From positions 1-50,014 of the IMG/VR virus record IMGVR_UViG_3300037044_000250: a stretch of 50,014 nucleotides of DNA; one strand, 5' to 3'. Of the stretch, positions 16,649-47,522 are shown one piece after another. Source of the stretch: a virus. Taxonomy: Duplodnaviria; Caudoviricetes. Both the position numbers and the translations under genes were made by a program. Position 1 is the first letter of the stretch. Every line of letters starts with the position of its first letter. The notes below the pieces were generated by a model. It was not told where the DNA came from, made no database searches, and saw nothing but the letters and a program-made list of their open reading frames with translations.

Positions 16649-16652
16649 GCCT

Positions 16653-21228: not shown

Positions 21229-21229
21229 G

Positions 21230-22237: not shown

Positions 22238-22257
22238 TTTCGTACTCCTTATGATTT

Positions 22258-22329: not shown

Positions 22330-22335
22330 TTTTGT

Positions 22336-23247: not shown

Positions 23248-23292
23248 GTTCGTTCTCCTTATTGTTCAAAGCGTTACTTGCATCCCAATGTG

Positions 23293-24582
23293 TTATCTGT
23301 TACCTGCACCCTGCGCCCTCATACCTGCCCCCTGTTTTTCAGCACGTTTTTTCGCATCAGCCAAAAGCGGATTGCTTTCACTTGATGCCAGTGGCCCGAT
23401 AGTGGATATAATAGGCGTTTGCGCTGCCGCTTTGGCCTTGGCGTCAAGAATAGCGCTTTTTGCCTCATCGAGCGTCAGTCCATCACGGATCATGGGGCCT
23501 GCAAGTTCCGGCATTCCCGCGACGTCGCATATTTCCACAATGTCTCCCGCCCCGGCAGTCGGGGTCACAGCGCCCGGGTCAGCGGTGTCGGGCGGATCGA
23601 CCACCGGCGCCGGCTCGATCAATCGTGCCTCGATCCCTTCCAGGACGTGACATTGCTCCTCAAGCATCTTTTTTACTTCAGACATGCTTTCCGCCAATGC
23701 ATGGGTAATGAAATCCTTCACTTCGTTGAAATTCATAGTCATGTCTCCTTTGCTTGAACTCATTTTTGTCATGATATCCCTTGCCGACAAAATACCATCC
23801 GCCAGGCCTGCCGCCACTGCATCATCGCCCATATAAAAGCCTGCCTGCGTAGCAATCACTGCCGCTTGCTTCATGCATCTGTTTCGCGCAACCGTTGCAG
23901 TAAGTAGGTCGTAGATCTTATCGACGTGGGCTTGCAGCACTTCCTTGCCATCGGCTTTCAACGTCTCATGTGGGTTGTAGTCATTTTTGTGATCACCGGC
24001 AAAAATGGCGGTATAATGAAGTCCCAGGTTCTTGTCGTAACCGCTTTGGTCAATATGTATGGCGATAACCCCGATCGAACCGACCTGCGCAGTTGTTGGC
24101 AGGTAAACTTCATCCGCCGCGGAAGCAATCGTATAAGCAGCCGAAAAAGCCGCTTCATCAGCAACGGCGATGATGGGCTTGGTTCCCCTTGCATGGTAGA
24201 TTTCATCCACCAAATCAAAAAGGCCCGCAACTTCACCACCCGGGGAATCTATGAGAAACAAAATGCCTTCAGCACGTTCATCGGCCATCGCCGCCCGGAA
24301 ACTGTCGCGAATATCCAGATATGATGTGGTCCACCAACTGTACGCGCGATATGTCAGCCCGCCTGAAATCTCGATCAGGGCAATGCCGTCAATGATCGCG
24401 TATCCTGCATCCACAAACACAACCTCATTTTCAAAATTGGCCAGCGCCTGTAACTTGTCGGTGCTCTTACCAGCAGCCGGTTCCTTTGATGTGATACCCG
24501 CCGTTATTGCAGAAAGAATTTCATCAACAGCTTGCGGCGCCACCATGAGCGCTGCATTAAAAAGTCTGGTCGGTATTTCCAC
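23293..24582 (-). CDS. prohead protease/scaffold (S49 peptidase, gpC-like)
   Basis: IDSPGGEV, AFSAAYTIASAAD, GSIGVIAIH; GTG start after AGGAGG. Confidence 0.92.
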   Translation of the reverse strand: MEIPTRLFNAALMVAPQAVDEILSAITAGITSKEPAAGKSTDKLQALANFENEVVFVDAGYAIIDGIALIEISGGLTYRAYSWWTTSYLDIRDSFRAAMADERAEGILFLIDSPGGEVAGLFDLVDEIYHARGTKPIIAVADEAAFSAAYTIASAADEVYLPTTAQVGSIGVIAIHIDQSGYDKNLGLHYTAIFAGDHKNDYNPHETLKADGKEVLQAHVDKIYDLLTATVARNRCMKQAAVIATQAGFYMGDDAVAAGLADGILSARDIMTKMSSSKGDMTMNFNEVKDFITHALAESMSEVKKMLEEQCHVLEGIEARLIEPAPVVDPPDTADPGAVTPTAGAGDIVEICDVAGMPELAGPMIRDGLTLDEAKSAILDAKAKAAAQTPIISTIGPLASSESNPLLADAKKRAEKQGAGMRAQGAGNR

Positions 24583-26044
24583 TGCTATTTCCTCCTGTTG
24601 CTCCCATCGTTGTCCTTGCGTCCGAATCAAACACAAGGCCGGCCGTATCCGCCCGCTCATTGTCCGCGTGAATTTCTTCCTCAAGCGCTTCAACGTCCAA
24701 TCCCCGCTCAGCCACTTCTTGTGTCCGGGAAGAAAAACCGGAGCGGACAAGACCGGTGGATGCCTTCAAGTCCTTAAGGGGGTCAACCCACGGCCAACCG
24801 TCAATCGTCCATTTGATCCGCATATATGACTTCGGGTCTTTGGCATAACCCGGCAGACGCATGGCATTCGACAGCTCAACCTGGGAAAGCCAATACCTGG
24901 CAACCGGTCTGCAGATCTGATATGCCATGACATTGAAAATAAACTGCTTGCATTGCCGTTGGAATTCCAGGTTCCCGGCACGGATAGAGGAATACGTCAC
25001 TCCGGACAGATCACCGGTAAACTTTTCATATGTCAGTCCGCCGATGCCCCGCGCCGCCCGCTGCTCCTGATGCTTGACAAAAGAGCCATAATTGCCGCCG
25101 ACATCGGCCGGTTCCGAAAACGTTACATTGTATCCGGGAGGAAGCGATGGAAACGTGCCTGGCTCCATCTGGATAACGGGAGAACCGGTTTCATCGGCGT
25201 CCCCCTCGTTTCCAAAGAGCGGGGGCATGTTCCCCTCTTCCGAAGGCTGGGTGATAAACCCCCCGAACATGGCAGCGGTTTTCTTCCTGACAAGTTCCGC
25301 GTCGTTGAATTGGTTAAGCTCATGCATGGTCAGGATCAAGGAAGCGAGCCACGGCCGCCCGCGCTGCTGCCCGGGGCGAAGCGGTTGGAATGAATGCAGT
25401 ATCTCAGGTGCCGGAATCCGAACCCGATCATATGTGTTGATACGGGTCAGGAAAGTCTCGCCTGGATGTTCCCTGAACATCCAGTACGCCTTGCGTTGAC
25501 CCGTCTTGTCAAACTCGATCCCCATGCGAATTTCATTGCCGTTGGGGGCAACCGTATTGTAATTGTGGTCCAGGTGATCCGCTTCCAGTATCTGTAATTG
25601 CAGCGGCACCATAAGACCGTTGCCCGGTCGCTTCGGACAGAACCGAATGAAAACCTCTCCGGATTCAATAATCGCCCGCGCAGCAAGCGTCTGAAGTCCG
25701 TAAAAATCAAGCAGCCTATCCGTGTCCGCTTCCTGGGTCCAGTCAGACCAGAGTTGCTGTAACCCCTTTTTGAGCTTGCTATTGGAAAGCTGCCAGCGGG
25801 GGGAGATCCCCATCCCGACGATATTGGACACCAGACAATCAAGGGCTCCGCATATCTGGGGATCGTTTCGTGACAGCTCGCGGGATCGCGAACGGAGATT
25901 CCCGAGGGACGTGTACAATGTGCTGTTCGGTCCTGACGTGGATGTGCCCCAGTTAGACAGGCGCCGGCCGTTCCCTGCTCCCTCAAAAGCGGTATACGCG
26001 CGGATCTTGCGGCCCGAGGCATCCAATATCTTCAGATAGGCCAT
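24557..26044 (-). CDS. portal protein, lambda family
   Basis: LRSRSRELSRND, PLQLQILEADHL, RPGQQRGRP, YSSIRAG, WPWVDPLKD. Confidence 0.95.
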   Translation of the reverse strand: MAYLKILDASGRKIRAYTAFEGAGNGRRLSNWGTSTSGPNSTLYTSLGNLRSRSRELSRNDPQICGALDCLVSNIVGMGISPRWQLSNSKLKKGLQQLWSDWTQEADTDRLLDFYGLQTLAARAIIESGEVFIRFCPKRPGNGLMVPLQLQILEADHLDHNYNTVAPNGNEIRMGIEFDKTGQRKAYWMFREHPGETFLTRINTYDRVRIPAPEILHSFQPLRPGQQRGRPWLASLILTMHELNQFNDAELVRKKTAAMFGGFITQPSEEGNMPPLFGNEGDADETGSPVIQMEPGTFPSLPPGYNVTFSEPADVGGNYGSFVKHQEQRAARGIGGLTYEKFTGDLSGVTYSSIRAGNLEFQRQCKQFIFNVMAYQICRPVARYWLSQVELSNAMRLPGYAKDPKSYMRIKWTIDGWPWVDPLKDLKASTGLVRSGFSSRTQEVAERGLDVEALEEEIHADNERADTAGLVFDSDARTTMGATGGNSSGNTDQTF

Positions 26045-26277
26045 TAAACCCCCTTGCGCGTTGATATTCGGAAGTGCCGTGGTCTACTGTTCAAGGCGTT
26101 TATCTCCGCGATGAGACTGGACTTGTAATCCTGCAAGTCCCCGAGCTTGGCTTGACCATATTCAGCCATACGGTCGCCGTTTGAGATGCGGATTACGCGT
26201 TCCCCCGACATCAGCTTTGCAATGGCTTCATCTACAGCCGTCAGTAAAACAGTCAACTCTGTTAGTGTCTGTGCCAT
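26044..26277 (-). CDS. head completion protein gpW-like
   Basis: AIAKLMSGERVIRISNGDRMAEY...L; directly upstream of the portal. Confidence 0.85.
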   Translation of the reverse strand: MAQTLTELTVLLTAVDEAIAKLMSGERVIRISNGDRMAEYGQAKLGDLQDYKSSLIAEINALNSRPRHFRISTRKGV

Positions 26278-26719
26278 GGCGGTATTAATGCAAAATTTTT
26301 TCAGGGACGCAAGTTGAGCACCGTACACAGTTCGCAGTATTCGCTTAAAATGCAGGAAAAGGGGGTTTTGTGTGAAGGAAGAAGGAAGTGCGATATTTGC
26401 GAATATCGGATGCTTTCGGGGGAGGCGGTTAGGAAGGTAAGTTATCGGTTATAATGAAAAAATAAGGCAATCTGGGGGCTTGGTGCAAGTAGGGCACCCG
26501 TAAGGATTTGATGGGTTGAAAGGACCCATTTTTTACGTGAAATGAGGGTAAAATGACATGAAAAATGGAAAAAAAAGAAGAGGAAAAGCGTGAATGTCGA
26601 TAGTTGATGATTGATGATGTTAGATGTAAAGTGGGAAAGTGTGACAAGCTGGATGAATTTGTGAGAAACCCAGGTGCAGCTCCACATGATGTACCATGGA
26701 TGCAATCTGAACGGAAGGG

Positions 26720-29700
26720 ATATGGCGTCACGCCCCTTGCAAAAAAAGCCGCAAGGGTCGCGCCGCTGGGTCGTGTGGTGCAAGCCCGGGGGTGTGCTCC
26801 TGGAGTCGCCTTCGGCTCCACCACGAAGCGGATAAAAGCGTTTGATATTTGATGGTGGCAGTTTGGACGTGAGGATGCCGGCGTCACGCCCCTTGCAAAA
26901 AAGCAAGGGTCGCGCCGCTGGGTCATGCTGTGCTTACCCGTTGTTTCTCTCCAGGTGTCGCCTTCGGCTCCATCCTGAAAGGGTAAAGGCATTTGATATT
27001 TGATGTCTAAGCTCCCCGTGAGGTGCTGGCGTCACGCCCCTTGCAGAAAAGCACGCAAGGGTCGCGCCGCTGGGCCATTCAGTGGTTCGCCCGGTATCTG
27101 CTGGCGGTGTCGCTTCGCTCCGTAAAAGGATAAAAGCATTTGATGTTTGATGGTGGCGCCTGGACAAGAGCGCAGGCGGCATGGCCCTTGCAAAAAACCG
27201 CAAGGGCCATGCCGCTGTCCGCGCTTTGGTTCTCGCCACGGTACAACAAAAGCAAAAACAAAAGCCTGTTTCTGTTCGTACTGTTGTTCTGGGTCGTCTG
27301 TTTGTGCTTTTCCGCCACTAGCGCCCCCGCGCGCGTGTTTTATTGTTGGTGGATGCGGGTTTGCATCTGGTGGTGGATATGGTAGTGGTACTACGTGTTT
27401 TGGCTATACGGCTTAATGACATGGGCGTTCCGGCTTCGCCGTCGGGTGTCTTCCGGCTCCGCTTCGCTCCGGTCCCGCCAAAAAACCGGCGGGACTTCCC
27501 TTCAGCCCCCCTAACGCTCGCGGGCCGGTGACGCTATCGGATTCGTGCCCGCGCTCCACATGGGGTGGTTTTGAGGTGCCGTTCGGCCGGTCACTCCCCA
27601 AAAGCGGTCGTGACCGGCCTCAAGGCCACTTTCCTGAAATCGCCACGGAAAAGCCCGGACGCCACGTGCAGTGCCGTTCAGGCGGGCACTCCGCTGCGCT
27701 ACGTGACCACCTTCATGTTGACTATCGGGGAACGCCACGAAAAAGTCCGCATGCCACGTGTGGTGCTGACCGGCGCTCCCCAAAAAGCCGGGGAGCGCCT
27801 AGGCGACGACCTTTTAAACCGACATGAGAAAAGCAAGCGAGGAGGGGCCGGACACTCCGCTACGCTACGTGACCGGCTTCGACATTATTTGATAAAAAGC
27901 CGCCATGCCACTTTCGGGGTTGGCCGCCGCTCCCTGCAAAGGCCAGGGAGCGGCTAGGCGACGACCTTTTCAACCTGGACGGAAAAGCAAAAGCACGCTG
28001 AATCACTGACGGTGCCGACCGACGTGTCCGGACAAAAATCTGCCCGGCCACACTTCGACCTCTTTGGGCGAAATGCGTTCATTCAAAGCGCCAGGAGTCG
28101 CGCGGCCTATGCAAAGTTGCGATGGCTTTGCTGAGGCCGCGCTCCGTCTTTATTTGATAAAAGCAACAGAACAAGGAAGTCGGGCGGCCACATCGCAATT
28201 GAAATGGTTGCTCAGCGGCCGCCCTCCATCTTTATCTGATAATGCCCACCACACCACCCACAGCGGATGGGCGCGGCAGCCGGGGCGGACGCTCCGCGGC
28301 TGGAAATGCCGCCTCCGCACGCGCCCCGACAGCCGCTTGTCCTATTTGATAAAAGCGGGAGCAGTCCATACGTTGGGCGCATGTGGTCCGGTCCCGAAAA
28401 GCACGGGACCGGACCACAGACGACCTATTGAGGAATGCGAACAAAATAAACAGCCGCACTTTGGACGGCCTCCGCGCCCCCTGACGGGAGCGCTCCAGCG
28501 AGTTTCTATCCAAGTTACTGGGGGTCAACCCACAAAAAAAACAGCCGCTGCCTGGGAGTAGGTGCATGTGGTCCGCTCCCTAAAAAAAGTTGCTTGTTCT
28601 TGCGAAGCAAGCCAGGGAGCGGACCACAGATGTTCTATCGGGGAACACGGCAAAAAAAGCAGACTTGCTTCGCAGATCAAGAAGGACGTGGAGTGCACGC
28701 CGGAGCGCTCCCAAAAAGCAGGGAGCGCTCCGGCGACGACCTATTGGGGCGCTCAAACAAAAAGAAAAACAGCAGGCTCCCCAGCCGGGTGCTGGCCGGC
28801 GCTCCCCAAAAAAGCCGGGGAGCGCCTAGGCGATGACCTTTTAAACCGACATGAGAAAAGCAAGCGAGGAGGGGCCGGACACTCCGCGAAAAGCCTACAT
28901 GACCGGCCCCGACATTATTTTGATAAAAGCCGTAGCGCCACATATGGTGTTGACCGGCGCTCCCTGCAAGGGCCAGGGAGCGCCTAGTAGACGACCTTTT
29001 CAGTTTGGACGAAAAAGTAAAAAGGAGGCGCTGGACACTCCGCTCCGCTACGTGACCGGCTTCAACATTATTTGATAAAAAGCTGCCATGCCGCGTTCGG
29101 TGCTGACCGCCGCTCCCTGCAAGGGCCAGGGAGCGGCTAGGCTACGACCTTTTCATTCTGGACGAAAAAACAAAAGCACGCTGAGTCACTGACGGTGCCG
29201 ATCGGCGCGCCCGGACAAAAATATGCCCGGCCGCACCTCGACAAATTTGGGAAAAGTACATTCATTCAAAGCGCCAGGAGTCGCGCGGCCTATGCAAAAT
29301 TGAAATGGTTTTGCTGAGGCCGCGCTCCGTCCTTATCTGATAATGCCCACCCACCACCCACTGCGGATGGGCGCGGATGGGCGCGGCAGCCGGGGCGGAC
29401 GCTCCGCGCTGAAAATGCCGCCTCCGCACCCGCCCCGACAGCCGCTGAATCAATTTGATAAAAGCGGGAGCATTTCGGACGTGTGGCGCAGTGCAACCCG
29501 GTCACTCCGCAAGGGCCTACGTGACCGGGTTGCATTCCGACGTGGAGAGGAGCGACGAGAAAAAACCGCACCCGGTATGTTCGGTGCAGCCGAAGCGCTC
29601 CCCAAAAAACCGGGGAGCGCTTCGGCGACGACCTTTCAGGAAATTCGAACGAAAAACAGAGGTGCAGTCCGACGTGCGGTTCTGATCGCCGCTCCCCAAA

Positions 29701-32700
29701 AAGCCGGGGAGCGGCTAGGCGACAACCTGTGTGACGCATCCATTCAAAACGCGGAAGGTAAGGGGTTGGGATGGCCACTGTTTCGACGTTTAGTGCTGCC
29801 GTAACGCACCTCAAAAAACCGGGGAGCGTTACGGAGATGACCTATCGGGGAACGCCAAGAAGAACAGCCGCCAGGCCCACGGCCTACGCGCACCCCAAAC
29901 TGCCGGGGAGCGCTTCGGCTGTGCAGTGAAGCCGGTCACTTCGCAAGGGCCTACGTGACCGGCTTCAAATCAGCGATCAGGGTACGCCACAGAAAAACAA
30001 AAGCAGAATGCCATGTTTCGTGATGAACGGCGCTCCCGAAAAGCACGGGAGCGCCTAGAAGACGACCTCTTGAATCTGGACAGAAAAGCAAAAAGACGTT
30101 GGGCCAAGTTCGGTGTTGACCGCCGCTCCCCAAAAAGCCGGGGAGCGGCTATGCGGCGACCTTTTCAGTTTGGGCAGAAAAGAAATATGGAGTCGCCGGT
30201 CACTCCGCTCCGCTACGTGACCGGCTTCAACATCATATGATAAAAAGCCGCAGAGCCACTGCCAGGTGCCGACCGGCGTGGCCGGACAAAAATCTGCCCG
30301 GCCACACCTCGACCTCTTTGGGCGAAATGCATTCATTCAAAGCGCCAGGAGTCGCGCGGCCTATGCAAAATTGTAATGGTTTTGCTGAGGCCGTGCTCCG
30401 TCATTATTTGATAAAAGCAACAGAACAAGGAAGTCGGGCGGCCACATCGCAATTGAAATGGTTGCTCAGCGGCCGCCCTCCATCCGTATCTGATAATGCC
30501 CACCCACCACCCACAGTGGATGGCGCGGCAGCCGGGGCGGACGCTCCGCGCTGAAAATGCTGCCTCCGCACCCGCCCCGACAGCCGCTGAACCAATTTGA
30601 TAAAAGCAAGAGCTGTCCGGACGTTGGGTGCATGTGGTCCGGTCCCGAAAAGCACGGGACCGGACCACAGACAACCTATTGTGGAGCGCGAACAAAATAA
30701 ACTGCCACACTTTGGACGGCCTCCGCGCTCCCTGACGGGAGCGCTCCGGCGACAACCTTTTCAACTTGAACAGAAAAGCAAACAAAGAGGCGCCGGACAC
30801 TCCGCTGCGCTACGTGACCGGCTTCAACATTATTTGATAAAAAGCCGCCATACCACGTTCGGGGTTGGCCGCCGCTCCCTGCAAGGGCCAGGGAGCGGCT
30901 ATGTGACGACCTGTATGACGCATCCATTCAAAACGCGAAAGAAAGGGCTATCATGGCCATTGTTTGGACGTCCAGTGCTGCCATAACGCACCCCAAAAAG
31001 CCGGGGAGCGTTACGGAGGCGAACTATCGGGGTATGCCAAGAAGAACAGCCGTCAGGCCCACGGCCTCCGCGCACCCCAAAAAGCCGGGGAGCGCTTCGG
31101 CGGTGCAGTTCGGCCCGTCACTTCGCAAAGGCCTACGTGACGGGCCTCAAATCAACGATCGGGGGACTCCAAGAAAAAGCCGCACTTTGCACGTCATGTG
31201 CCGGCGTACCGCTCCCCAAACAGCCGGGGAGCGGTACGCAATCGACCTTTCGGATCAAGAAAAAAACCGTAAAGTGCCACGTTCGGTGCTAACCGGCGCT
31301 CCCTGCAAAAGCCAGGGAGCGCCTAGGCGAGTTTCTGTATGACGCCACGGAAGAAGAGGACGAAAAGTCAAACAGCGGAAAAAAGCATTGATATTTGATG
31401 GTGGCAGTCTGGACGTGGGGGAACAGGCGGCGCGCTTCTTGCAAAAACCGCAAGAAGCGCGCCGCTGGAAGCATGGTGAAAGTCGGGAAGATCTGCTGGC
31501 GGATAAAAAGTCAGTTTAATCCCCCGCCTGTTGATATGGCCCGCATGAACTTTTGTGAGTTGCGGCCGGCCGCATAATGCCTTGGGGCAAGTCGCTCCGT
31601 TCGGCACGGCTGATAAGAGCTCTTATCAGCCGTGGCTTTTTGTCATGCAGGCTGCAAAAAAACAGCAGCCTGCCCGCCAAAAACCTCCCCTCACTCCGCT
31701 AGACATAACACGCATTATGTCTCCTTGCCCCAAGGCATTATGCGGCCTCTTTCCCACTCCGCACTATCTTTCTACCGGCCCGACCGGCCGCCCCCAGGGG
31801 CTATTAGCGGAATTCTGCCTTTAAAAGGATAAAAGCATTTGATATTTGATAGTGGCATCTGAACATGAGCGCAGGTGTCACGCCCCTTGCAAAAACCGCA
31901 AGGGGCGCGCCGCTTGCCGCGCTTTGTGTAGTGGCACGGAAAAACAAAAGCAAAAGATTGTTGCAGATCGTTCAGATGCTCTGGTTCGTAATGGCTTTTT
32001 CCGCCACTAGCGCCCCCGCGCGGGTATTATGGTTCTGGATGTGGATATGGATCAGGTGGTGGTAGTGGCGTTACACGTTACGGATCTATGTATTATGGCT
32101 ATACAGCAAAATGAGACGGGCGTTTCGGCAGGGCAAAAAGCGCGCCCTGCCGTCGGGTGTCTTCCGGCTCCGCTTCGCTCCGGTACTGCCGGTCAAGATC
32201 GTGCAAAAATCGACTTATAGAGCGCGGCAGGACTTCCCTCCAGCCCCCCTAACGCTCGCGGTCCGGTGGCCGCTATCAGCTTCGTGCCCGCGCTTCACGT
32301 GACCAGGACGTACGGTGTGCTGCTTCCGCCTCCCGTTCCGGCAGGCCTTCACGGGAGACGGAAGCAGTGGCACTATCCGGATGGTCCCTGACATAACTGC
32401 CTCCCGCCGGGTAAAAAAAACCCCGGCGGTAAGACCTGGCATCCGGTGTGTTGCAGAAGTCTCCCGTTCAGCAAGCTTTCACGGGAGACTTCTGCAATGG
32501 CACTATCGGGGAAGCTCGACGTAAACTGCCTCCCGCCGGGAGAAAAGCACCCGACGGTAAGACCGAAACGTGCCGTGCCGTGCAGCCGGTCACTTCGCAA
32601 GGGCCTGCGTGACCGGCTGCAAGTCCACTATCGGGGAATGCCACGGAAAAACAAAAGCCGCATGCCATGTTTCGTGCAGACCGGCGCTCCCTGCAAGGGC

Positions 32701-34390
32701 CAGGGAGCGGCTAGACGACGACCTTTTCAACTTGGACGAAAAAACAAAAGCCGCTGGGTCACTGGCGGTGCCGACCGGCGCGGCCGGACAAAAATCTGCC
32801 CAGCCGTATCTCGACAAATTTAAGGAAAGTGCATTCATTCAAAGCGCCAGGAGTCGCGCGGCCTATGCAAAATTGCAATGGTTTTGCTGAGGCCGCGCTC
32901 CGTCCTTATCTGATAATGCCCACCACACCACCCACAGCGGATGGGCGCGGCTGCCGGGGCGGACGCTCCGCGGCTGAAAAATACCGCCTCTGCACCCGCC
33001 CCGACATCCGCTGAACAAATTTGATAAAAGCGGGAGCATTCCGGACGTGTGGCGCGGTGCAACCCGGTCACTCCGCAAGAACCTACGTGACCGGGTTGCA
33101 ATCCGACATGGAGTGGTGCGTCGAGAAAAAACCGCAACCGGTCGTTTGGAGCAGCCGAAGCGCTCCCCGAAAAACCGGGGAGCGCTTCGGCGACGACCTT
33201 TCAGGAAACTCGAACGAAAAAACAGAGGTGCAGTCCGACGTTCGTTTCTGGTCGCCGCTCCCCAAAGGGCCGGGGAGCGGCTAGGCGACGACCTGTATGA
33301 CGCATCCATTCAAAACGCGGAAGGAAAGGGGTTAGGATGGCCACTGTTTAGACGTCCAGTGCTGCCGTAACGCACCCCAAAAAGCCGGGGAGCGTTACGG
33401 AGGCGACCTATCGGTGTACGCCAAGAAGAACAGCCGCCAGGCCCACGGCCTCCGCGCACCCCAAACTGCCGGGGAGCGCTCCGGCTGTGCAGTTCAGCCC
33501 GTCACAAAAAACCGTGACGGGCTTCAAGTCCACATGGGGGAAAGGGCGAAAAAAAACAGCCGGACCCTGGGCGTGGGGAACTGGTAGTCCGCTCCCTGCA
33601 AAAGCTACTTGTTCTTGCGAAGCAAGCCAGGGAGCGGACTACAGACGACCTATTGAGGCGCTCAAACGAAAAAACAGCAGACTCCCCAGCCAGGTGCAGA
33701 CCGGCGCTCCCCAAAAAGCTACTTGTTCTTGCGAAGCAAGCCGGGGAGCGCCTAGGCGACGACCTTTTAGGCGCCACGAAAAAGAAAAGGAGGCCGGTCA
33801 CTCCCAAAAAGCGGTCGTGACCGGCCAGCCATAATCAGCGGATAAAAGCATTTAATATTTGATGGCGATATCCCACATGGAGTGCATGGCGTCACGCCCC
33901 TTGCATGAAAACCGCAAGGGTCGCGCCGCTGGGAGCAGGTTGAAGGGTGGAAGAACGCTCCAGGACGAAAAGTCAAAAAAGGATAAAAGCATTATTCGAT
34001 ATTGCCCGCCCACCACCCACTGTTGAAAGCAAATAAAACTGAAGACCTCAGGAAAAACCTATCGTGCTCCGGAAACCTCACAAAAGCCCTCGGTATCCGT
34101 CGCATGGGACGAAAAGCCGGAACAGGGAGTCCGGAGGTGAGGAGTGCGGCGCCGATCACCTGTCGGTCATCGGCACCGGTGGACAGGAGGGGAAACGCGA
34201 CGAAATACTTTCAACCGGGGACGGCAAGGGATCGTCTGGACGTTGGGCGGGACGCGAACAGCGGGGCTGTCGGCACGTTTTACTAACAAAGGATTGAATA
34301 AAAAGCGACGAGTAGAGGGCCGGGTGCTGGTGGGACGTGGGAATCTGGTGTCACGCCCCATGCAAAAAGAGCATGGGGCGCGCCACTGGG
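26720..34390. repeat. ~7.7 kb non-coding modular hairpin array with internal segmental duplications
   Basis: About 29 CGCTCCC-loop-GGGAGCG type hairpins, about 14 CCGGTCAC...GTGACCGG, 8 CCCTTGC-A(n)-GCAAGGG, 4 identical 38-mers; no credible ORFs. Confidence 0.9.
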
Positions 34391-34610
34391 CAGTTGAAGC
34401 AAAAGCGGGAGGGTGATCCATGAAATAAACAAGGAAAGAAAAAACGTTTTTAAAAAATGACAAAAAACTGATAGCTGCCGGGGCTGCAGCGTTCAATACC
34501 TGAAGTAAGGAAACATGAAAAAGGAAAAAACAGATGAACCCAAATATGTGACAAAATAATGGAAGGGATTTTCATTTGTGTTCTTATATAAAAATATATA
34601 TAATTAAATA

Positions 34611-34982
34611 ATGGATGAGGCAGAACTTAAAGAACTTGAATGGATCGGATCAGCCCGTAAGGATTTACTGGCTTTGCCGCTTCCTGTTCGCCGTGCCTTT
34701 GGATATGCGCTTTATGCCGTTCAATTGGGTGTGAAGCCGCCGGAAGCAAAGCCGCTTAAGGGCTTTGGAGGTGCGGGAGTTTTAGAACTGATCGAGGATT
34801 TTAAGGGCGACACATACCGTGCCGTTTACACCGTTCGGTTTGCTGCCAAGGTTTATGTTCTGCATGTGTTTCAGAAAAAGGCAAAACACGGTATTGCAAC
34901 ACCAGATCATGAATTAGACTTGATCCGAAAACGGTTAAAGCGAGCCGAGATACTTTATTTCGGCAAGAGCAAGGAGACCTGA
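34611..34982 (+). CDS. RelE/HigB-like toxin (phage Gp49/DUF891 family)
   Basis: WIGSARKDL, KPLKGFGGAGVLEL, YRAVYTV, VYVLHVFQKK. Confidence 0.9.
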   Translation: MDEAELKELEWIGSARKDLLALPLPVRRAFGYALYAVQLGVKPPEAKPLKGFGGAGVLELIEDFKGDTYRAVYTVRFAAKVYVLHVFQKKAKHGIATPDHELDLIRKRLKRAEILYFGKSKET

Positions 34983-34984
34983 AT

Positions 34985-35320
34985 ATGAAAAAAGATTATG
35001 AAAAAAGCAGTGGGAATGTGTTTGCCGATTTGGGGTTTCCAGATTCCGAACAGGAACTTGTTAAGGCTAAATTGACGGTGCAGATTTATCGTCTGCTGAA
35101 AGACCGGGATTTAAACCAAACCGAGGCTGCGAAATTGTTGGGGACCACACAGGCGCAGGTGTCATCTCTTATGCGGTGTCGTCCAGTTTCGGTATCAGTA
35201 GGCCGTCTGATGGAATTTTTAACGATACTCGGGCAGGATGTTGAGGTTACCGTTAAACCGGCTTCACGTTGCAGCAAAGGGCAGCATGGGCTTATGTCTG
35301 TAAATGTGCATCAAGTCTGA
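34985..35320 (+). CDS. XRE-HTH antitoxin (HigA-like)
   Basis: SSGNVFADLG, LNQTEAAKLLGTTQAQVSSL, RLMEFLTILGQDVEV. Confidence 0.9.
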   Translation: MKKDYEKSSGNVFADLGFPDSEQELVKAKLTVQIYRLLKDRDLNQTEAAKLLGTTQAQVSSLMRCRPVSVSVGRLMEFLTILGQDVEVTVKPASRCSKGQHGLMSVNVHQV

Positions 35321-35332
35321 TGAATGATCGAA

Positions 35333-35671
35333 TCAAAGGATCGTTTCGATTCCCTTGCGATGAATTACGGTTAACAGTGCAAGTGCTGCACCGGTTGGAC
35401 GCTTTTTGCCTCGCTCCAGTTGTGACACATAACCGGCCGTTAAATTCAGATAATGAGCAAACACCGCTTGGCTCATGTGAGCTTGCTCACGCATCGCACG
35501 AATGTCTTCACCGGTCAGCGGTTCAGTAACGATTTTTTCTTTCACGCCAAGGTGGCGCAAGGTGATTTTCCCATAATCCGCATCATCCATCAGTCCGATA
35601 TCTCGCATGTCTTTCGCAGTCTCAAGCATCGCTTTTGCCAATCGACTGGGCTTTTTATTTTCCGTTGCCAT
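35333..35671 (-). CDS. XRE-HTH antitoxin
   Basis: IRAMREQAHMSQAVFAHYLN...VSQLERGKKRPTGAALALL. Confidence 0.9.
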   Translation of the reverse strand: MATENKKPSRLAKAMLETAKDMRDIGLMDDADYGKITLRHLGVKEKIVTEPLTGEDIRAMREQAHMSQAVFAHYLNLTAGYVSQLERGKKRPTGAALALLTVIHRKGIETIL

Positions 35672-36035
35672 AGTTTACCTCCTGTAAAAAACCCTTCCCT
35701 ATCGCGTTTTCAAGGTGTTTGTCATCTGCCTCAAGCCAGCCTGCTGCGATTTCCCTCAGCGTTGTCAGTTCATCGTCGTCGATATTTTCGCGTTCGTTTT
35801 TTGCAAAGCCATACAAGAATACCGCCCGATCTCCGGAGCGGTAGGCGATCAGCAGCCGATACCCACCTGAGCGGCCTTGTCCTGTCCGTGCAACCCTCTG
35901 TTTGATAACACCGCCGCCTAAATCAGCATCAACAATCCCATGTTCAGCCCTTTCGATTGCGCCGCATAAGTTGCGATCTCCGATTTGTTCCCGCCGCGCA
36001 AAGCGCACGAACCACTTTGTTTTAAATATCCGCAC
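35655..36035 (-). CDS. RelE/ParE-family toxin (DUF1044-like)
   Basis: FKTKWFVRFARRE, DADLGGGVIKQRVAR, GRSGGYR, FLYGFAKNERENI. Confidence 0.9.
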   Translation of the reverse strand: MRIFKTKWFVRFARREQIGDRNLCGAIERAEHGIVDADLGGGVIKQRVARTGQGRSGGYRLLIAYRSGDRAVFLYGFAKNERENIDDDELTTLREIAAGWLEADDKHLENAIGKGFLQEVNYGNGK

Positions 36036-36055
36036 ACTTCCTCCCCATTTTTTAA

Positions 36056-36084
36056 ACTATAGCACTATAAACTATATATTTCAA
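36056..36084 (-). promoter_or_regulatory. sigma70 promoter of second TA operon
   Basis: TTGAAA-17-TATAGT on the minus strand with overlapping ACTATA repeats (possible operator). Confidence 0.55.
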
Positions 36085-36663
36085 GCTGCCCGGGCTGGGT
36101 ATCTGTTCGGGTCCAGGCGCCCGTGCGCCAGAGGTCTAAGTACATATAAATAAACCAATAACATACTGTTTTTGTTATATAGTTAATAAAAATAAACCTA
36201 TTTTTGGTATATCGTTCATTTTCTTGTACAATAGCTTCATTGCTTATTTTGTGTTATTATAATATTTTATATAACTGATATTATTGCATATATTATATAT
36301 AATATGGCATAAATTGGCATGTAGCTTGCATTTTCTTATGGTGCCTGGGCGTGTTGGCCAGGCGCAACTTTTCACCATAGGGGGGGTCTTATGTCGCTCA
36401 ATTTTTGTATGCCGTCCGTTCATTCGCCGCGCGTTCCCTGCATCATGCTGCCTCCGTTCGATATCCGGTCCGAAGGCACATCTTTCAAACAATTTGTTTA
36501 TCAAGGCGTTAACTCAGGTCAAGCTCCATCTACCACAGATCCTTCTGTTCAGCGCGCCGCGTTGCCCGATGCTCAGCAGTGTTAATTCCCGCAGCGCTCC
36601 CGGGTGGCCTGGGGCGCTTTTTCAATCCGTGCATTTTGCGCGTTTACCTTCAGGAGGTGCCTT

Positions 36664-37050
36664 ATGCAGCTATCTTTTTTTCGCGATTCATTGCCGGCCG
36701 GTTATGTCCGTTTTTATCCAGATATTCCCACGGAAATTTTTCTTGCCTTGGGCGGCGCGCAGGCGCTCGAAAAAGTTGGGGCGCACAATATCCTCAGCAG
36801 CCACAATGCCCTGCAGATCGATCTGTGTGCAGTCAATGGCGTTACCATGATTCATGTCACCCAAAACGTTCACAAGGCATACAATATTTATTTTTATAAC
36901 AGCAAGGGGGCGTGCATGTCGTATGCTTATCATGTCTATCACCGCGAGCTTGCAGGCGTGTTCCGGGCCGGCACCGGGCTGGTTTCTTTCAAGAAAAAAT
37001 ACATCGGCCTCGATCCGGCGGTTTGCTGTGATGAAGCCGCAGCCGCGTAG
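36664..37050 (+). CDS. hypothetical mobile-element protein
   Basis: RBS AGGAGG; IFLALGG...VGAHNI...YNIYF...VY...LAGVFRAGTGL pattern; has its own terminator. Confidence 0.65.
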   Translation: MQLSFFRDSLPAGYVRFYPDIPTEIFLALGGAQALEKVGAHNILSSHNALQIDLCAVNGVTMIHVTQNVHKAYNIYFYNSKGACMSYAYHVYHRELAGVFRAGTGLVSFKKKYIGLDPAVCCDEAAAA

Positions 37051-37065
37051 GTCAGTCTGTCTGTC

Positions 37066-37098
37066 AGCGGCACCCTCTCCAGGGTGCCGCTTTTTTTT
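37066..37098 (+). terminator. rho-independent terminator
   Basis: AGCGGCACCCT-ctcc-AGGGTGCCGCT followed by a T run. Confidence 0.85.
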
Positions 37099-37396
37099 AT
37101 CTATTCAAAATAAGTATAATTATATTCTAAATTAGAATATTGTTTATATGTCAAGCGATTATGGCCTGCGAAGCCGAAGGCGGGGTTCCCCCATTACCTG
37201 TGCATAGATGCCGCGTTCCCCCAGCCCAGTCACAGACGTCAAAACGGTCCTGCATCCCGCGCCTAAAAAATATTAAAAAAACACAACAAAAAGGGCTCCA
37301 ATTTGTATATACAAATTTCACGGCAAGATACTGCATGGGAGCCGGTTTGTTAAAGCAGTATCCTTAAGGGATGGCGACGGTCTTTTGTAGGTGTTT

Positions 37397-37756: not shown

Positions 37757-37789
37757 AACCCCCCCTTGTCTTTGATTTTCGTGTGGGCA

Positions 37790-38140: not shown

Positions 38141-38149
38141 GGATTTTTA

Positions 38150-40824: not shown

Positions 40825-41012
40825 CTGTTAGATACCTTGAGCATGTTCTTCTTGATGTACTTATCAATGGAGCCTTTTGACACACGCAAGCCACGAGGCC
40901 CGAGCCTGATGGCTTTAAGCTTTCCGGATTTGATCAAATCGTAAATGTGGCGCTCGGTGCAGCAAAGCTCCTGTGCGGCTTTGCGAACATAAATAAATTT
41001 TCCGATGGTCAT
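40821..41012 (-). CDS. excisionase-family HTH protein
   Basis: VRKAAQELCCTERHIYDLIKSGKLKAIRLG. Confidence 0.85.
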   Translation of the reverse strand: MTIGKFIYVRKAAQELCCTERHIYDLIKSGKLKAIRLGPRGLRVSKGSIDKYIKKNMLKVSNR

Positions 41013-42871
41013 GGTTTCCCCTTTTGCCGCTCCATGAAGGAGCTGATCACGGTAACTTTCTTTTTCCTTTTAGTGGGGTCCTGAGAGGCGGCGGTCTTCT
41101 TCTGGTTTTTGGGATTCCCAAGCCAGAGAAGACCGGCGCGGATGGCGGCGGCGTATGCGTAAATTTCTGCATCGAGTGCATCGTTTCGATCCCGCGTTTT
41201 CACCCATTCCAGGTAGGGGAACCCGCCTTTTATATGCGTTTCGATTTTTTCAGCAGTCAGTTGCAGAAAATACTCATCCGTTACGGATTCATACCAGTGG
41301 TAACAGCAGGGTCCGGGCGTGGTAATGTTTTTCAGCCGGCCGTAAAGGGTGGATTTTGCCGTATCGGTTCCAACAGGCCATAATTTGACGCCTTTGGGTA
41401 TGAGTTTGCCTTTCCAGTTCAGATCCTGGAGCGATGGTTTTCCAAGCACGGGTTTATTGCGGGCGCGCTCGCCTTTTACAGCGAAGATACGGCTGTCCTT
41501 TTTCCGGCAATAATTATAAACCTGTTGTGTTTTGTAACCAGAATCTATTGCAACACCGACAACGGGGATGCCAGCGTCATCGCGTGTGAAGTTAAAAGCA
41601 ATCAAGTCGTCAAGCTGCGTTTCCCATTCCCCGTATATCTCTCCATGCCAGATAAGCCATGATTCTTCACCCACACCCCATCCACGGATCACAATCACAA
41701 TGCGGTTTTCCTGTACGTCAACGCCAAACGTGATGAACACAACACCCGGGGGCGGCTTCATCGGCGAGTAAGGTTCACATCTCAGCCGGAGGTTTTCCCA
41801 TTCCGGTTGTTCCCCGGCAACTTCATAAGGTTCGCCCAGCCGTGTATTTACCCAGACCTTCAGGGCCATGGGGTCATTTTTTGCGTCGATGTATTCCTGG
41901 GCGATCTGGCGCCAGGATACAAAACCCAGGGGAGACAGGAGCCCGCTGATGTGATATCCGCGTTTTTTCCGGTTGGGTTGCAGGGGAATCCATTTTCCCT
42001 TTTTCAGCATCCTGCTTTTGTAATGCTCGTTGATTCTTTCCCGGCAGCGCATGCAGGTGTACCAGACATCGGTTATCTCTCCGTTTTCCGCTGTGTAATG
42101 CAGCCCGTGCTCCTCGTTGTTTGTGGAGAAAATAAGGATTTGCAGGGTCTCGCAAAAAGGGCAGGGCACGTGGTAATACCGCTGGTCGGATTTCTGGAAT
42201 TCTTTTTCGATCAGGGATCCGCCTTTTTGCGTAGGCGTGCTGATCTTTAATATTTTTTTCCGGCTGGAGTAAGTATCGGTCCGGCGTTCGGCCAGGCTCA
42301 CGGGGCTTCCTTCGCCGCCGATATCCGGTTCAAAACCGTCGATATCATCCAGGATCAGATATCGTATGGAGATATTTCTGAAAGCCGCGCCGGAGTTGCT
42401 GCCGGCCATGTACAGCGCGCCGCCGACAAAATTTTTGGCAAGTACTGTGTTTCCGCCGGTGCGGCTTTTTGTCGGGTGGACCTTTGTAGCGATCGCGGGA
42501 ATGCTTTCGATCATGGGTGCGATACGGTTCCGGCTGTGGCGTTCCGCCAGCTCAACCGTGGGAAGCATGTATAAAATAGGGCCGGGTGCACAGTCGATGA
42601 TATAACCGATAAAATTGTTTGCCACTTCAGATCCGCCAATCTGCGTGGCTTTCATAACAACTACGTCGTTTACCTCTGTTTCGGTTACCGAGAGTGCCTG
42701 CATGATCTCCCGCAGATATGGCGTGCGTTTTGTGCGGTAGTTGCCGGCCTCACGGGAGGCAACGGTATTTAAAACCCTTTTCTCATCCGCCCACTCGTCA
42801 ACAGAGATAAGGGGGTCCAGTTCAAGGCCGGCACAGGCAGCTTGGATAAAAAAAGTGTGGCCATCAATCAT
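41009..42871 (-). CDS. terL: terminase large subunit (lambda gpA family)
   Basis: RTPYLREIM, MKATQIGGSE, LILDDID, ISTPT, YYHVPCPFC, GVDVQENR, RNDALDAEIYAYAA. Confidence 0.96.
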   Translation of the reverse strand: MIDGHTFFIQAACAGLELDPLISVDEWADEKRVLNTVASREAGNYRTKRTPYLREIMQALSVTETEVNDVVVMKATQIGGSEVANNFIGYIIDCAPGPILYMLPTVELAERHSRNRIAPMIESIPAIATKVHPTKSRTGGNTVLAKNFVGGALYMAGSNSGAAFRNISIRYLILDDIDGFEPDIGGEGSPVSLAERRTDTYSSRKKILKISTPTQKGGSLIEKEFQKSDQRYYHVPCPFCETLQILIFSTNNEEHGLHYTAENGEITDVWYTCMRCRERINEHYKSRMLKKGKWIPLQPNRKKRGYHISGLLSPLGFVSWRQIAQEYIDAKNDPMALKVWVNTRLGEPYEVAGEQPEWENLRLRCEPYSPMKPPPGVVFITFGVDVQENRIVIVIRGWGVGEESWLIWHGEIYGEWETQLDDLIAFNFTRDDAGIPVVGVAIDSGYKTQQVYNYCRKKDSRIFAVKGERARNKPVLGKPSLQDLNWKGKLIPKGVKLWPVGTDTAKSTLYGRLKNITTPGPCCYHWYESVTDEYFLQLTAEKIETHIKGGFPYLEWVKTRDRNDALDAEIYAYAAAIRAGLLWLGNPKNQKKTAASQDPTKRKKKVTVISSFMERQKGKP

Positions 42872-42911
42872 AATGAACCCGTACCGGCGTAACCCGCCTG
42901 TCAGAATTGGA

Positions 42912-43034
42912 ATGGCAAAGCAAAAAGTTCAAGATCAAGGCGAGCAAGTCCTGAGGAGTGAGGCGTACAACCAGTACGCCGCAACGACGAAGGATGCAGC
43001 TCAACGCAGATATTGGGCTTTTTGAGAAGCCATC
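42912..43034. repeat. palindromic MITE/REP-like element, copy 4 (diverged)
   Basis: Core GTCCTGAGGAGTGAGGCGTACAACCAGTACGCCGCAACGACGAAGGATGC between terS and terL. Confidence 0.85.
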
Positions 43035-43677
43035 AATCATCGGAACCGTCTCGGATATGCGTTAACGCGTTTCGTATTTCATTCTCCAGGATGATCCGTA
43101 TATTGGCTTCCTTCTTTTCAGCGGCAAGCTGGGCGCTGATTCTGTCAATGATGTTAATCAGACTGTCGCGGGTTTTCCGGTACATTTCAAAGGCGCCTTT
43201 CCTGACATCTTCGTCCCGGAGCAATTTCCCAGCCCGCTCCTCATAATCCAGCTTTTTCATTTCGGCGTTATACTGTTCTTTTAACGTCCGAGCCGCGCTG
43301 AAGGACATTCCCGCCAACTCAATGGTTTTTGCTGTTTCTGTCTTCTGTCCTCCGTCATCAGCCCTCTGCCTTCTGTCATCCGTCCTCTGTTCATCCTGTG
43401 CCGGTAGGCACAGCCTGGCGATCTTGTTTTTATGTCCGCGGGCCACGGGGTCTGAATATTTTTTGACATTTTCAACGGCAGCTTCAATATCGATGATGTA
43501 TCGCCTGTTGTTGAGCCTGGTAAAAGTATCGCCGAAAGCGCCTTTCTGGTGGAGTTGAGAAACACGTCCCTTGGTGATGCCAAGGCGTTTTGCCAGATCG
43601 GTAACATTCCCGTAACCAGCCGGTAAAGATTTCAGATTACTTTTTCCCCGAGGTTTGTTTCTTGATTTTTTTGGCAC
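43033..43677 (-). CDS. terS: terminase small subunit (Nu1-like)
   Basis: N-terminal HTH (TDLAKRLGITKGRVSQL); C-terminal ARTLKEQYNAEMKKLDYEERAGKL...ENEIRNAL; upstream of terL. Confidence 0.8.
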   Translation of the reverse strand: MPKKSRNKPRGKSNLKSLPAGYGNVTDLAKRLGITKGRVSQLHQKGAFGDTFTRLNNRRYIIDIEAAVENVKKYSDPVARGHKNKIARLCLPAQDEQRTDDRRQRADDGGQKTETAKTIELAGMSFSAARTLKEQYNAEMKKLDYEERAGKLLRDEDVRKGAFEMYRKTRDSLINIIDRISAQLAAEKKEANIRIILENEIRNALTHIRDGSDD

Positions 43678-46468: not shown

Positions 46469-46630
46469 TTTTCTTCCCTCCTTTAAAATTTAATGAAATC
46501 GCAAAAAGTCATAACTCAGACGGCTTCGTAAGCTTTCATATGAAGTCCGGGCTTTTCCCCGTCAATGAAAATGGATACCTTCCCCCTTTGTAAAAGGGGG
46601 ATCGAGGGGGATTTTCCCGCTGAATCATCG

Positions 46631-47407: not shown

Positions 47408-47428
47408 ATCTACCTCTTTGTATGGAAA

Positions 47429-47522
47429 AGGGGGCAGGGGCCAGGTTTCAGGGTGCAGATAAAAGCAGGACGCAATGTGCGTTTTTTCCTGCCCCCTGCC
47501 CCCTGTTACCTGTCACCTGCCC
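47429..47522. repeat. heptamer-repeat hairpin (CAGGGGC/CCTGCCC)
   Basis: GGGGCAG GGGCCAG GTTTCAG GGTGCAG ... CCTGCCC CCTGCCC CCTGTTA CCTGTCA. Confidence 0.7.

Follow-up and report, generated by a model that had tools for sequence, protein, structure and literature searches.

The window, i.e., the whole 50,014-nucleotide stretch of phage DNA analyzed in this work, carries a modular, non-coding array of hairpins adjoining a predicted lambda-type cos site. Comparison of gene orders indicates that this predicted cos has moved away from terS in the clade bearing the array and, as cos was relocated, the array would be placed where the right end of the virion DNA is predicted. The pattern of stem changes supports selection acting on base pairing and not on protein, and the minus strand is likely the folded one. 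The locus is organized as follows:

26720..34390, minus strand as the likely folded one: modular, non-coding hairpin array of 7.7 kb (relatives, 3.0-7.2 kb)
26487..26527, minus strand: predicted cos, with a 7-nt cosQ-like motif (26527-26521), an 18-nt spacer, a conserved 4-mer and a 12-nt predicted cohesive end (26498-26487)
24557..26328, minus strand: gpW and lambda-family portal, the start of the head operon and predicted left end of the virion DNA
34611..36035, no strand assigned: two RelE-type toxin/HTH antitoxin pairs, an optional cargo missing in L001 and L039
36080..36335, plus strand: conserved upstream region with a sigma-54-type promoter (36314-36331) pointing away from the array
36391..37100, plus strand: orf64 (36391-36585), orf128 (36664-37050) and a terminator
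41009..43677, minus strand: gpA-type terL and terS, separated by the array from cos and gpW
45095..48052, minus strand: RecT-like annealase and two exonuclease-like genes

The array coordinates given in an initial annotation of this DNA were confirmed, together with its estimate of about 55-60 stem-loops and its statement that no credible genes are present between gpW and the toxin-antitoxin genes. Within 26734-34380 there are 39 perfect hairpins (stem of at least 7 bp, loop of 3-14 nt), a density of about 5 per kb, compared with about 1.2 per kb for the 48 counted over the 41 one-kb bins that lie outside 26-35 kb. A search tolerating mismatches and bulges called 66 hairpins in the array stretch, some of them weak, and the extended total was about 60; the covarying stems previously cited at 28385, 29801 and 31204 are present in the sequence as written. 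Relative to dinucleotide shuffles, 150-nt windows of the array had a mean fold z-score of -2.7 to -3.2, as opposed to -0.05 to -0.6 for the genes on either side. Of 680 indels distinguishing the window array from six relatives, 50 were divisible by 3, which gives no coding signal, and a scan of two of the array-overlapping ORFs against Pfam and PHROGs yielded no match. No Rfam family matched the array at the gathering score, with seven matches below that threshold (E <= 1), and the search for tRNA and tmRNA genes found none. An assembly artefact, which the initial annotation had named as a possible refutation, was ruled out, as three DNA runs cover 30/30 bins of the region 21000-40900 and contigs with zero differences span 26098-27451 and 34361-36370. 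Among the contigs listed, none spans the entire array, and thus the precise order of the modules is provisional for this single assembly. In the RNA run X20 (contigs only), 0.07 of the words were found; a single 151-nt contig was listed for the array, and cover was similarly low on the head and toxin-antitoxin genes.

The array was found in a lambda-like prophage family of deltaproteobacteria, which answers the question of conservation in related prophages raised by the initial annotation, and it is present in a circular 48-kb record as well. The same annotation had considered that the modules might turn out to be a chromosome-wide REP/BIME family. The array does share with REP/BIME elements the GC-rich imperfect palindromes and mosaic clusters; however, it is confined to the cos locus, is not scattered in the hosts, and has no RAYT-type HUH gene found nearby. 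Its matches formed two clustered loci in each of two genomes, local matches were obtained in 8/23 family genomes (at most 13 candidates scored per genome), and the best match in 400 kb of host DNA had an E value of 0.06. A RAYT (HUH) transposase was not found among the 59 window ORFs or 34 of the 54 listed ORFs of G026, nor was any primase or HUH nuclease in the window or these 34 ORFs; the scanned window and G026 genes included no reverse transcriptase or RNA-binding partner, and no tyrosine integrase was found in the window record. A RepB primase gene, lying near one prophage (G001), was rejected as an array partner, because it was detected in 2/5 host genomes and in none of five virus records, by a search that was silent in controls. 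BLASTn searches with the array (27400-34400) against GenBank phages and PLSDB plasmids, with element E (described below) against plasmids, and with 30500-34400 against E. coli genomes gave no match.

The predicted cos resembles the cosQ-cosN-cosB site of lambda in several respects: a gpA-family terminase, gpW and a lambda portal are encoded by the phage, the motif is oriented to the head genes, and the 7-mer, which we take to be like lambda cosQ in its letters and spacing, stands at a fixed distance before the 12-nt cohesive end. The same motif is found directly upstream of terS in three distant relatives (L022, L033 and L035). It is kept in 12 other array-bearing loci (some of which belong to one record) and takes a variant form in L012 and L018. 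The flanks of the predicted nick sites fit only partly, since the left one is CG in most loci and the right one is not; in an excerpt of PMC4669245, CG at the cohesive-end flank is called highly conserved. In contrast to lambda, terS and terL lie here across cos, and hairpins fill the 3-8 kb that separate terL from it, whereas relatives with the usual order, in which cos precedes terS, have no array and only 0-3 hairpins in the 1.5 kb preceding cos.

The initial annotation had correctly located the array upstream of the head operon, but the adjoining cos-like site, about 200 nt from the first hairpin, was overlooked. Among metagenome loci found via the cos motif alone and long enough to be tested, array modules were present on the array side in 32/33 (first array match 153-304 nt from the motif) and on the gpW side in 0/37, counts which come from related and partly duplicate loci and do not represent independent events; distant array carriers with the variant cos (L012 and L018 type) are under-sampled in this set. 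In all loci with a match, the first one falls at most 320 nt from cos, and in L011 and L043 a cargo of 5-6 kb is inserted between cos and gpW. Two further candidates were dismissed. In X12, a contig breaks off close to the cos motif, but at a depth of just 3-4 this provides no evidence of a virion end. The linker motif following B hairpins, similar to the lambda cohesive end as quoted in an excerpt of PMC12315714, is not a plausible decoy cos, as the predicted end of this phage is different and pairing between the motif and the upstream flank is weak.

Among two-sided stem changes, 198 were compensated and 29 were not, versus 39 expected; counted as distinct events, there were 84 compensated and 18 uncompensated pairs. 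This covariation, together with the indel pattern, bears out the earlier claim of selection on structure. Divergence from relatives amounted to 11% at stem sites, 17% in linkers, and 31-46% at four-fold sites of the portal and terL genes. Four-fold sites of orf128 differ by just 15% (6/40), and therefore recent exchange may inflate the apparent conservation.

As for the folded strand, the initial annotation had stressed the A-rich plus strand. The A richness is borne out by the AT skew (+0.07 to +0.29 between 28 and 35 kb), but the mismatch types and the folding of element E favour the minus strand. A first strict mismatch count comprised few cases, mostly A.A, with G.T and A.C at 6 to 10, and was undecided. 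Among one-sided stem changes, A.C on the plus strand (equivalent to G.T on the minus strand) outnumbered G.T by 45 to 20 (p = 0.014, background bias allowed for), which supports statistically the minus strand as the probable folded one. Wobbles of the G.T type made up only 45/141 one-sided changes. On the minus strand, GNRA and UNCG loops were not enriched, and c(GNA)g triloops showed a mild excess (33 vs. 22 +/- 4; plus strand, 5 vs. 30), which disappeared with 2-bp stems (83 vs. 93).

Within the array, repeat families D1-D17 were defined, and the following modules were distinguished:

26720..27220, minus strand: four type A hairpins next to cos, with further copies at 31426, 31874, 33890 and 34347
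27420..27535, minus strand: block D, a cluster of conserved small hairpins that follows a T/G-rich stretch and has a duplicate near 32140-32290
27560..31330, minus strand: B- and C-type hairpin modules (about 95-155 nt) in shuffled order, together with larger duplicated blocks; more at 32560-33830
31568..31748, minus strand: element E, single copy, with an outer 23-bp inverted repeat, a XerC-like-arm hairpin, a type-A-like middle hairpin and a XerD-like-arm hairpin
34140..34320, no strand assigned: block F, a conserved motif close to the distal array end

Block D was present in 17/18 arrays examined (G026 is without it), and block F in 8/18, most of the other ten being cut by contig ends; in the complete G017 array block F was undetected. 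The order of modules varies among relatives. Type A hairpins were studied in 91 distinct copies, chosen for their pairing and for their similarity to 21 seed copies. Their arm length is fixed, their loop length is variable and three mismatches are retained; pairs 4-7 are Watson-Crick in 89-91 of the 91 copies and pair 8 in 29/91. Two-sided changes occurred at 6/9 pairs, a count made on alignment A1, which included one mis-cut row (L012) that the 91-copy set is without. The variable loops and kept mismatches argue for hairpins, as read from these alignments, over fixed-spacing dimer sites. B stems presumably resemble type I-C CRISPR repeats, and the linkers, again by our assumption, IHF, Fur, FNR and rolling-circle nick sites and IS605 ends.

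Element E occurs once in 8/8 arrays with both ends on the contig, has a fold z-score of -13, shows two-sided changes at 17/42 pairs, and folds better on the minus strand, where it contains many G.T pairs, in 12/13 copies; its inner part is inverted in L007 and L043. Folded-strand recombination sites are known from attC and CTX attP. When the arms of element E were compared with the dif table of PMC2731167, some copies were identical to listed deltaproteobacterial XerC or XerD arms. As in dif, XerC-like and XerD-like 11-mers face a short spacer and tyrosine recombinases adjoin E elsewhere; however, instead of a XerC arm facing a XerD arm across 6 bp, C is paired with C and D with D, the spacers are 5-8 nt, and the phage is devoid of the recombinase pair. 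Stand-alone copies were found in 11 places of nine other genomes of the order (a 29-nt match in L189 and weak matches in G154 and G298 being excluded), beside tyrosine-recombinase and Rhs genes and antisense to the neighbouring recombinase genes. The best matches to the recombinase pair in array hosts had only 30-36% identity. Stand-alone element E is a likely source of the array. Type A hairpins are similar to its middle hairpin.

Beyond the array, the region 36080..36335 is conserved in 7/7 aligned loci, and upstream of host genes the sigma-54-type spacing was found at 14 sites versus 0-5 at other spacings. The orf64/orf128 unit adjoins the array in 8/8 loci reaching that far. Four paralogs of orf128 are encoded in G026, and the protein has a weak PHROG match, no Pfam match, Atlas scores below 0.8 and a PDB sequence match at E 0.04; the homologues found (26 and 21) included none with an assigned function. 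Its structural model (pLDDT 77.5) gave no Foldseek match at E <= 0.001, the best being the C-terminal domain of T4 MotA (TM 0.45, E 0.36). Exonuclease and RecT genes lie on that side in 6/6 prophages examined; their carriers, apart from the window, include G001 (two prophages), G024, G025 and G026.

Our tentative explanation is that the array acts in cis as a platform of folded single-stranded DNA, formed by the 3' tail at the free cos end. If cos is cut as in lambda, the array would be the last-packaged right end, left free while terminase stays on the left end. The phage exonuclease with RecT, or a host helicase-nuclease, would then strip the 5'-ended strand over some kilobases, and the remaining minus strand, whose 3' end is located at the predicted right end, could fold into about 60 hairpins. 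These would offer double-stranded footholds for host DNA-handling proteins (via the Xer-like arms in E, and possibly for priming proteins) and many interchangeable annealing joints, so that the free end might be re-primed or recombined into concatemers rather than lost; a role in recombination would account for the constant module shuffling. The array probably grew from the end of a recombinase element, element E, captured beside cos. According to an excerpt of PMC12315714, lambda leaves open to RecBCD the strand whose 3' terminus lies at the right end. The Chi clusters described there at the right end of the Rec-less lambdoid phages LLS and MD8 are also oriented repeats on the strand with its 3' end at the free end, but these consist of 8-nt words and occur in phages that have no Rec module, whereas here RecT and exonucleases are encoded and the units are hairpins. 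None of the oriented 5-8-mers of the array qualified as a Chi-like host word (400 kb of a 4.7-Mb host, weak GC skew).

Several observations count against this single-stranded DNA model. Lambda cohesive ends anneal fast after entry, which would largely confine the relevance of resection to cells at the packaging stage. The conserved CG is missing from the right flank of the predicted cohesive end, the G.T pairs of element E suit RNA equally well, the minus strand is also the sense strand of the late genes, and the inversion of element E in L043 indicates that its orientation can be lost. Of the two candidates put forward by the initial annotation, single-stranded DNA nevertheless fits somewhat better than non-coding RNA, although the sigma-70 signature of Frpo and the HUH nuclease expected there were not found. 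Frpo/ssi sites of plasmid leading regions (PMC11541004) present, as the array would, duplex protein sites in one-strand hairpins, next to small genes without known function or of anti-defence type; they differ in that the array has no sigma-70 boxes in its stems (five weak 9-of-12 matches inside it, with no gene following) and no gene per hairpin, and that phage DNA is delivered double-stranded.

It is possible, though we doubt it, that the minus strand is transcribed, in a late transcript or from the distal type A copy, into a long structured RNA or processed units whose U-rich loops sequester a host or defence protein. The identity of the folded strand with the late-gene sense strand and the G.U-type pairs of element E would suit such an RNA, and the distal type A copies are closest on the minus strand to the sigma-54 consensus, which we assumed for the type A arms and the 36314-36331 promoter alike. 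ArdC cassettes, moreover, occupy the terL-gpW slot in L023 and L024. The unit size recalls the UG27 reverse-transcriptase ncRNA arrays (10.64898/2026.09.22.753630), which, in the excerpt available, are prophage arrays of structured units of about 100-160 nt gained and lost; by the same excerpt, they differ from the present locus, which has neither a reverse transcriptase nor the two accessory genes, combines several unrelated module types and is tied to cos. The Rfam result, with its sub-threshold matches only, the non-dominant wobble pairs, the unenriched RNA tetraloops, the missing protein partner among the scanned genes and the antisense position of element E relative to its recombinase genes speak against RNA.

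A bolder reading, which we hold to be rather improbable, is that the clade moved cos and built a kilobase-scale hairpin set from the captured recombinase-element end, the modules of which rebuild duplex sites for XerC, XerD, sigma-54 holoenzyme and others. The leading or resected end might thereby recruit or soak up host machinery without any phage protein, i.e., a takeover by nucleic acid only, combined with end rescue.

In lambda, the right end enters first, and the array could be a decoy or loading field in the first-injected duplex DNA, where palindromes or cruciforms bind sigma-54 holoenzyme, XerC/D or defence sensors ahead of the small-gene cassette driven by sigma-54. This is unlikely in our opinion. 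Minus-strand type A arms do carry a -24 GG and a -12 GC at sigma-54 spacing in 89/91 copies (predicted sites only), and the Xer-like arms of E, the conserved promoter with its small genes beyond the array and the defence-type cargo across cos in L043 and L070 would fit. However, the spacing may be inherited from element E through its middle hairpin, a 13-nt spacing is as frequent across arrays as the 10-nt one (112 vs. 119), B and C modules do not have it, and strand asymmetry of mismatches is unexpected for duplex sites.

Selfish or neutral expansion, in which the captured recombinase-element end was amplified at a recombinogenic cos end, with template switching keeping palindromes perfect without functional selection, likewise has a low probability. 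Template switching does produce two-sided changes, and the stand-alone copies of E, its inversion in one lineage, and the variable size (3.0 to 7.7 kb) and shuffled order of the arrays are compatible with it. On the other side, a fixed framework, made up of a type A cluster, D, E and a terminal type A, persists across phages with 84-95% portal identity and 82% identity of type A hairpins, specific mismatches that palindrome correction would erase survive in most of the 91 type A copies, all clade cos sites with enough flank, bar one, have array modules, and the circular record contains the array too.

It is very improbable that the array signals mechanically to the DNA motor or during ejection, or that it is a stuffer holding the cos-to-cos length in range. 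The array does stand directly before the cosQ-like motif, the point at which packaging would stop (according to an excerpt of PMC4669245, termination requires cosQ and cosN), but packaged DNA is duplex, which leaves the single-strand asymmetry unexplained, and the stuffer was rejected because array length does not offset the length of the remaining genome (r = -0.12 over n = 5 partial spans). The iss region of T5 is likewise a conserved non-coding region rich in repeats and palindromes near a genome end, and, as stated in an excerpt of 10.1101/866236, serves as an injection stop; that region is 1.2-1.7 kb long, of fixed order, with DnaA boxes and long terminal repeats, whereas the array measures 3-8 kb and has shuffled order, covarying stems and cos ends, and no A1/A2-like genes were named in the window ORF scans.

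In the literature searched (main texts, mostly of open papers), no description was found of the array, of the recombinase-pair element or of such use of a phage genome end. Element E points to a type of element composed of tandem tyrosine recombinases, a Toprim gene, Rhs cassettes and a three-hairpin site. Non-coding hairpins at a single, precisely defined position take up approximately 6-15% of the DNA in this clade, even though cos phages have scant spare room. The fixed neighbour cos, the preferred strand and the complete circular record (G026) make the proposal directly testable. Should the array act on the end that is free or enters first, it would constitute a new way of handling phage ends and a phage counterpart of plasmid leading regions.

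The gene-free region of the window, a 50,014-base provirus record, is a real, selected and non-coding array of hairpins, which is linked to a predicted cos site and could be assigned to no known family. The features considered here are:

26720-34390, minus strand likely folded: array of modular hairpin repeats
26527-26487, minus strand: cos site predicted from motif conservation, in which 18 nt of spacer separate a 7-mer from a conserved 4-mer and the 12-mer after it
31568-31748: element E, single-copy core of the array, with an outer stem and three hairpins (fold z -13)

The hairpins reported in the initial annotation were borne out: 39 perfect ones were found at 26734-34380, at four times the density of the rest of the window (66 with mismatches permitted), and fold z-scores were about -3 across the array versus about 0 in genes. 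Its view that no protein is encoded there also held: of 680 indels relative to six relatives, 50 had a length divisible by three. The Rfam search which it had proposed gave no match at the gathering score (seven were sub-threshold). Three DNA runs covered the whole region, and exact contigs confirmed both array ends, with none of the contigs listed crossing the full array.

The window also encodes lambda-type head proteins (gpW, portal, S49 protease, gpD, and gpE), a gpA terminase, RecT, two exonuclease-like proteins and a repressor-like HTH protein. The nearest relatives of its DnaB are deltaproteobacterial, and a pattern derived from the array matched two genomes, those of a delta proteobacterium and a Desulfobacteraceae. 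A replication initiator and DnaB (38150-40789) are located between terL and the small-gene cassette in the window and in genome G025; loci L001 and L039 are without this pair and carry a different initiator-like gene before terS. In the tail region, two B12-binding radical SAM genes (DUF4070; 4697-8483) are common to G001, G024, and G025, and tblastn of the stretches fetched from G026, a circular array-bearing record, gave no match to them; the majority of ORFs at 9950-20707 had no Pfam match, and PHROG matches were few. An IS110-family transposase fragment (284-1099) lies at the left record edge. In L071:268-1173 (G001:C4), a RepB-type primase gene, not found in the five virus records searched, lies some 2 kb away from the repressor gene of the prophage.

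Homologous arrays occupy the same place in related prophages (portal identity 83-95%), a conservation which had been named as a check; they measure 3.0-7.2 kb, and their frame is constant while the order of modules in the middle differs. Every array match in two host genomes was confined to two clusters per genome, eight of the family's 23 genomes had local matches only (at most 13 candidates scored per genome), and 400 kb of host DNA held no significant match; the chromosome-wide REP/BIME family, named initially as refuting, was therefore rejected. BLASTn against cultured phages, plasmids (with 27400-34400), and E. coli (with 30500-34400) gave no array match. REP/BIME, Chi clusters, T5 iss and Frpo (as described in 10.1101/866236 and PMC11541004), and UG27 arrays (10.64898/2026.09.22.753630) each share one trait with the array; REP/BIME, Frpo, and UG27 arrays differ from it in a defining one. 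For Chi, no oriented 5-8-mer of the array was over-represented and skewed in 400 kb of a 4.7-Mb host genome whose GC skew is weak. Pseudo-ToxI repeats are reported for phage TE (PMC3475682). Literature searches, excluding supplements, yielded no account of such an array.

The order of 7-mer, spacer, and 12-mer at 26527-26487 is presumably the lambda cosQ-cosN layout. According to PMC4669245, cosQ is a highly conserved 7 bp and the ends are of 12 bases. The motif is conserved in 12 further array loci, with variant forms in L012 and L018, and it stands directly before terS, the usual place, in L022, L033, and L035; the CG to the right of the predicted nick is not conserved, which counts against the assignment, and no cos was located in L023, L024, or L025. 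A metagenome scan by the cos motif alone gave 37 loci. Of these, 33 extend from cos towards terL for more than 380 nt, and in 32 of the 33 array matches begin 153-304 nt from cos (three of the 32 with a single hairpin). Because the search pattern was derived from loci with arrays and some loci duplicate others, this indicates a clade-wide link and not 32 independent events. The gpW side bore array matches in none of the 37. In relatives whose cos precedes terS, the 1.5 kb in front of it contain 0-3 hairpins. Cos and array are retained as a unit in remnants without head genes; in the head-less L040, L041, L070, L087, L162, and L163, cos is accompanied by the array, whole or in part, or by a single type A hairpin. 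L011 and L043 have insertions of 5-6 kb of cargo between cos and gpW. Defence-type cargo on the gpW side of cos (L070:1374-17017, L043:11333-15365, L045:4628-8032) includes DUF499, DUF1156 methylase, SNF2 helicase, Abi_2, and AAA_21; HEPN/Toprim; and GIY-YIG/DUF4357 genes. In a more distant phage (L018:1-950; portal 82%), type A-like hairpins lie beside the variant cos, as do a tandemly duplicated stretch and a short tandem repeat.

Beyond the array, a predicted sigma-54-type promoter, with a spacing enriched in the host, is present in 7/7 loci, followed by orf64 and orf128, which point away from the array; orf128 adjoins it in all eight loci reaching that far, and G026 has four orf128 paralogs. 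In the array-less relatives L023 and L024, ArdC and small ORFs stand behind repeated sigma-70-type promoter blocks between terL and gpW (L023:6400-9700, L024:4800-9700). Of 91 type A copies, 89 have arms with the sigma-54 spacing; as a 13-nt spacing is equally common and the spacing may be inherited from element E, this is a lead only.

Element E occurs once in each of eight complete arrays and is inverted in one lineage, L043/L007 (G025), where its inner 130 bp are flipped between the outer inverted repeats. Its middle hairpin equals type A in length and anchors, and of 42 predicted pairs in the element 17 show two-sided changes. The arms of element E are similar to dif arms of deltaproteobacteria in the table of PMC2731167, the XerD-like arm in G026 and L187 being that of Myxococcus and the XerC-like arm in L184 that of Anaeromyxobacter. 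A dif site was rejected, because each arm is paired with one of its own kind (C/C and D/D) and the spacers are 5-8 nt long. At 31605-31634, the middle of the XerC-like palindrome is self-complementary in three different versions across prophage copies, a property that several stand-alone copies do not share. Among 301 genomes of the order, 13 matched element E, and 11 of 12 places fetched from ten of them held a stand-alone copy (that of L190 partial), with no phage genes near these 11. Two copies come after a Toprim gene with two recombinase genes in tandem, and a third after a recombinase where its contig begins. Five copies adjoin Pfam-confirmed Rhs genes; others adjoin small gene pairs, toxin-antitoxin-like by eye. 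BLAST of the array against these loci gave three matches outside E (reversed control: six), so descent of modules B, C, D, and F from there is unsupported. The Toprim gene, tandem tyrosine recombinases and a following three-hairpin site whose arms are XerC-like and XerD-like (L186:5292-9714, L187:6-4346, L188:187-1567; further loci L178, L181-L185, L190, L191) form a possible cassette-capture element, of which the literature searched gave no description; the same site also adjoins orphan Rhs C-terminal genes.

On the plus strand, the isolated mismatches were mainly A.C (58), C.T (51), G.T (41), A.A (38), and C.C (32), with G.A (19), G.G (18), and T.T (5) rarer; the minus-strand versions of the prevailing ones are better-tolerated classes. 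One-sided stem changes gave A.C 45 versus G.T 20 (p = 0.014 with background bias allowed for), and with either parameter set the minus strand gave the better fold for 12 of the 13 copies of element E. The minus strand, with T-rich loops, is therefore likely the folded one, contrary to the initial emphasis on plus-strand, A-rich loops. The case for DNA over RNA is weaker: wobbles make up one third of one-sided changes, GNRA loops are depleted and c(GNA)g triloops mildly enriched at 3-bp stems and not at 2-bp stems, while element E has many G.T pairs. In contigs of one RNA run, array and genes alike had low depth. That the array acts as RNA is somewhat doubtful.

Covariation of stems, proposed at the outset, was confirmed. 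Two-sided changes in core stems kept pairing in 198 cases and not in 29 (39 double changes expected by chance), and distinct events were compensated in 84 cases versus 18. Divergence from relatives reached 11% of sites in stems, 15% in loops, and 17% in linkers; four-fold sites diverge by 31-46% in portal and terL and by only 15% in orf128. Template switching can mimic covariation, but three mismatches persist in the majority of 91 distinct type A copies, whose loops differ in length, which argues against it. Neutral expansion, despite the shuffled middles, and a duplex decoy both appear improbable, and a motor or ejection signal, suggested by the place beside cos, is the least credible. A stuffer role found no support, as array length did not offset the size of the remaining genome (r = -0.12, five partial spans).

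Since the head genes lie downstream of cos, the array would form the predicted right, last-packaged end of virion DNA. According to PMC12315714, cutting by terminase leaves this end of lambda DNA exposed to RecBCD, and it is the upper strand that ends there with its 3' terminus. The right-end 3' strand here is the minus, folding strand, which favours, tentatively and with all steps past the anatomy inferred, a cis-acting single-stranded platform left by resection of the right end. Its folded hairpins would offer footholds to host proteins, and the modules would supply many annealing joints for RecT.
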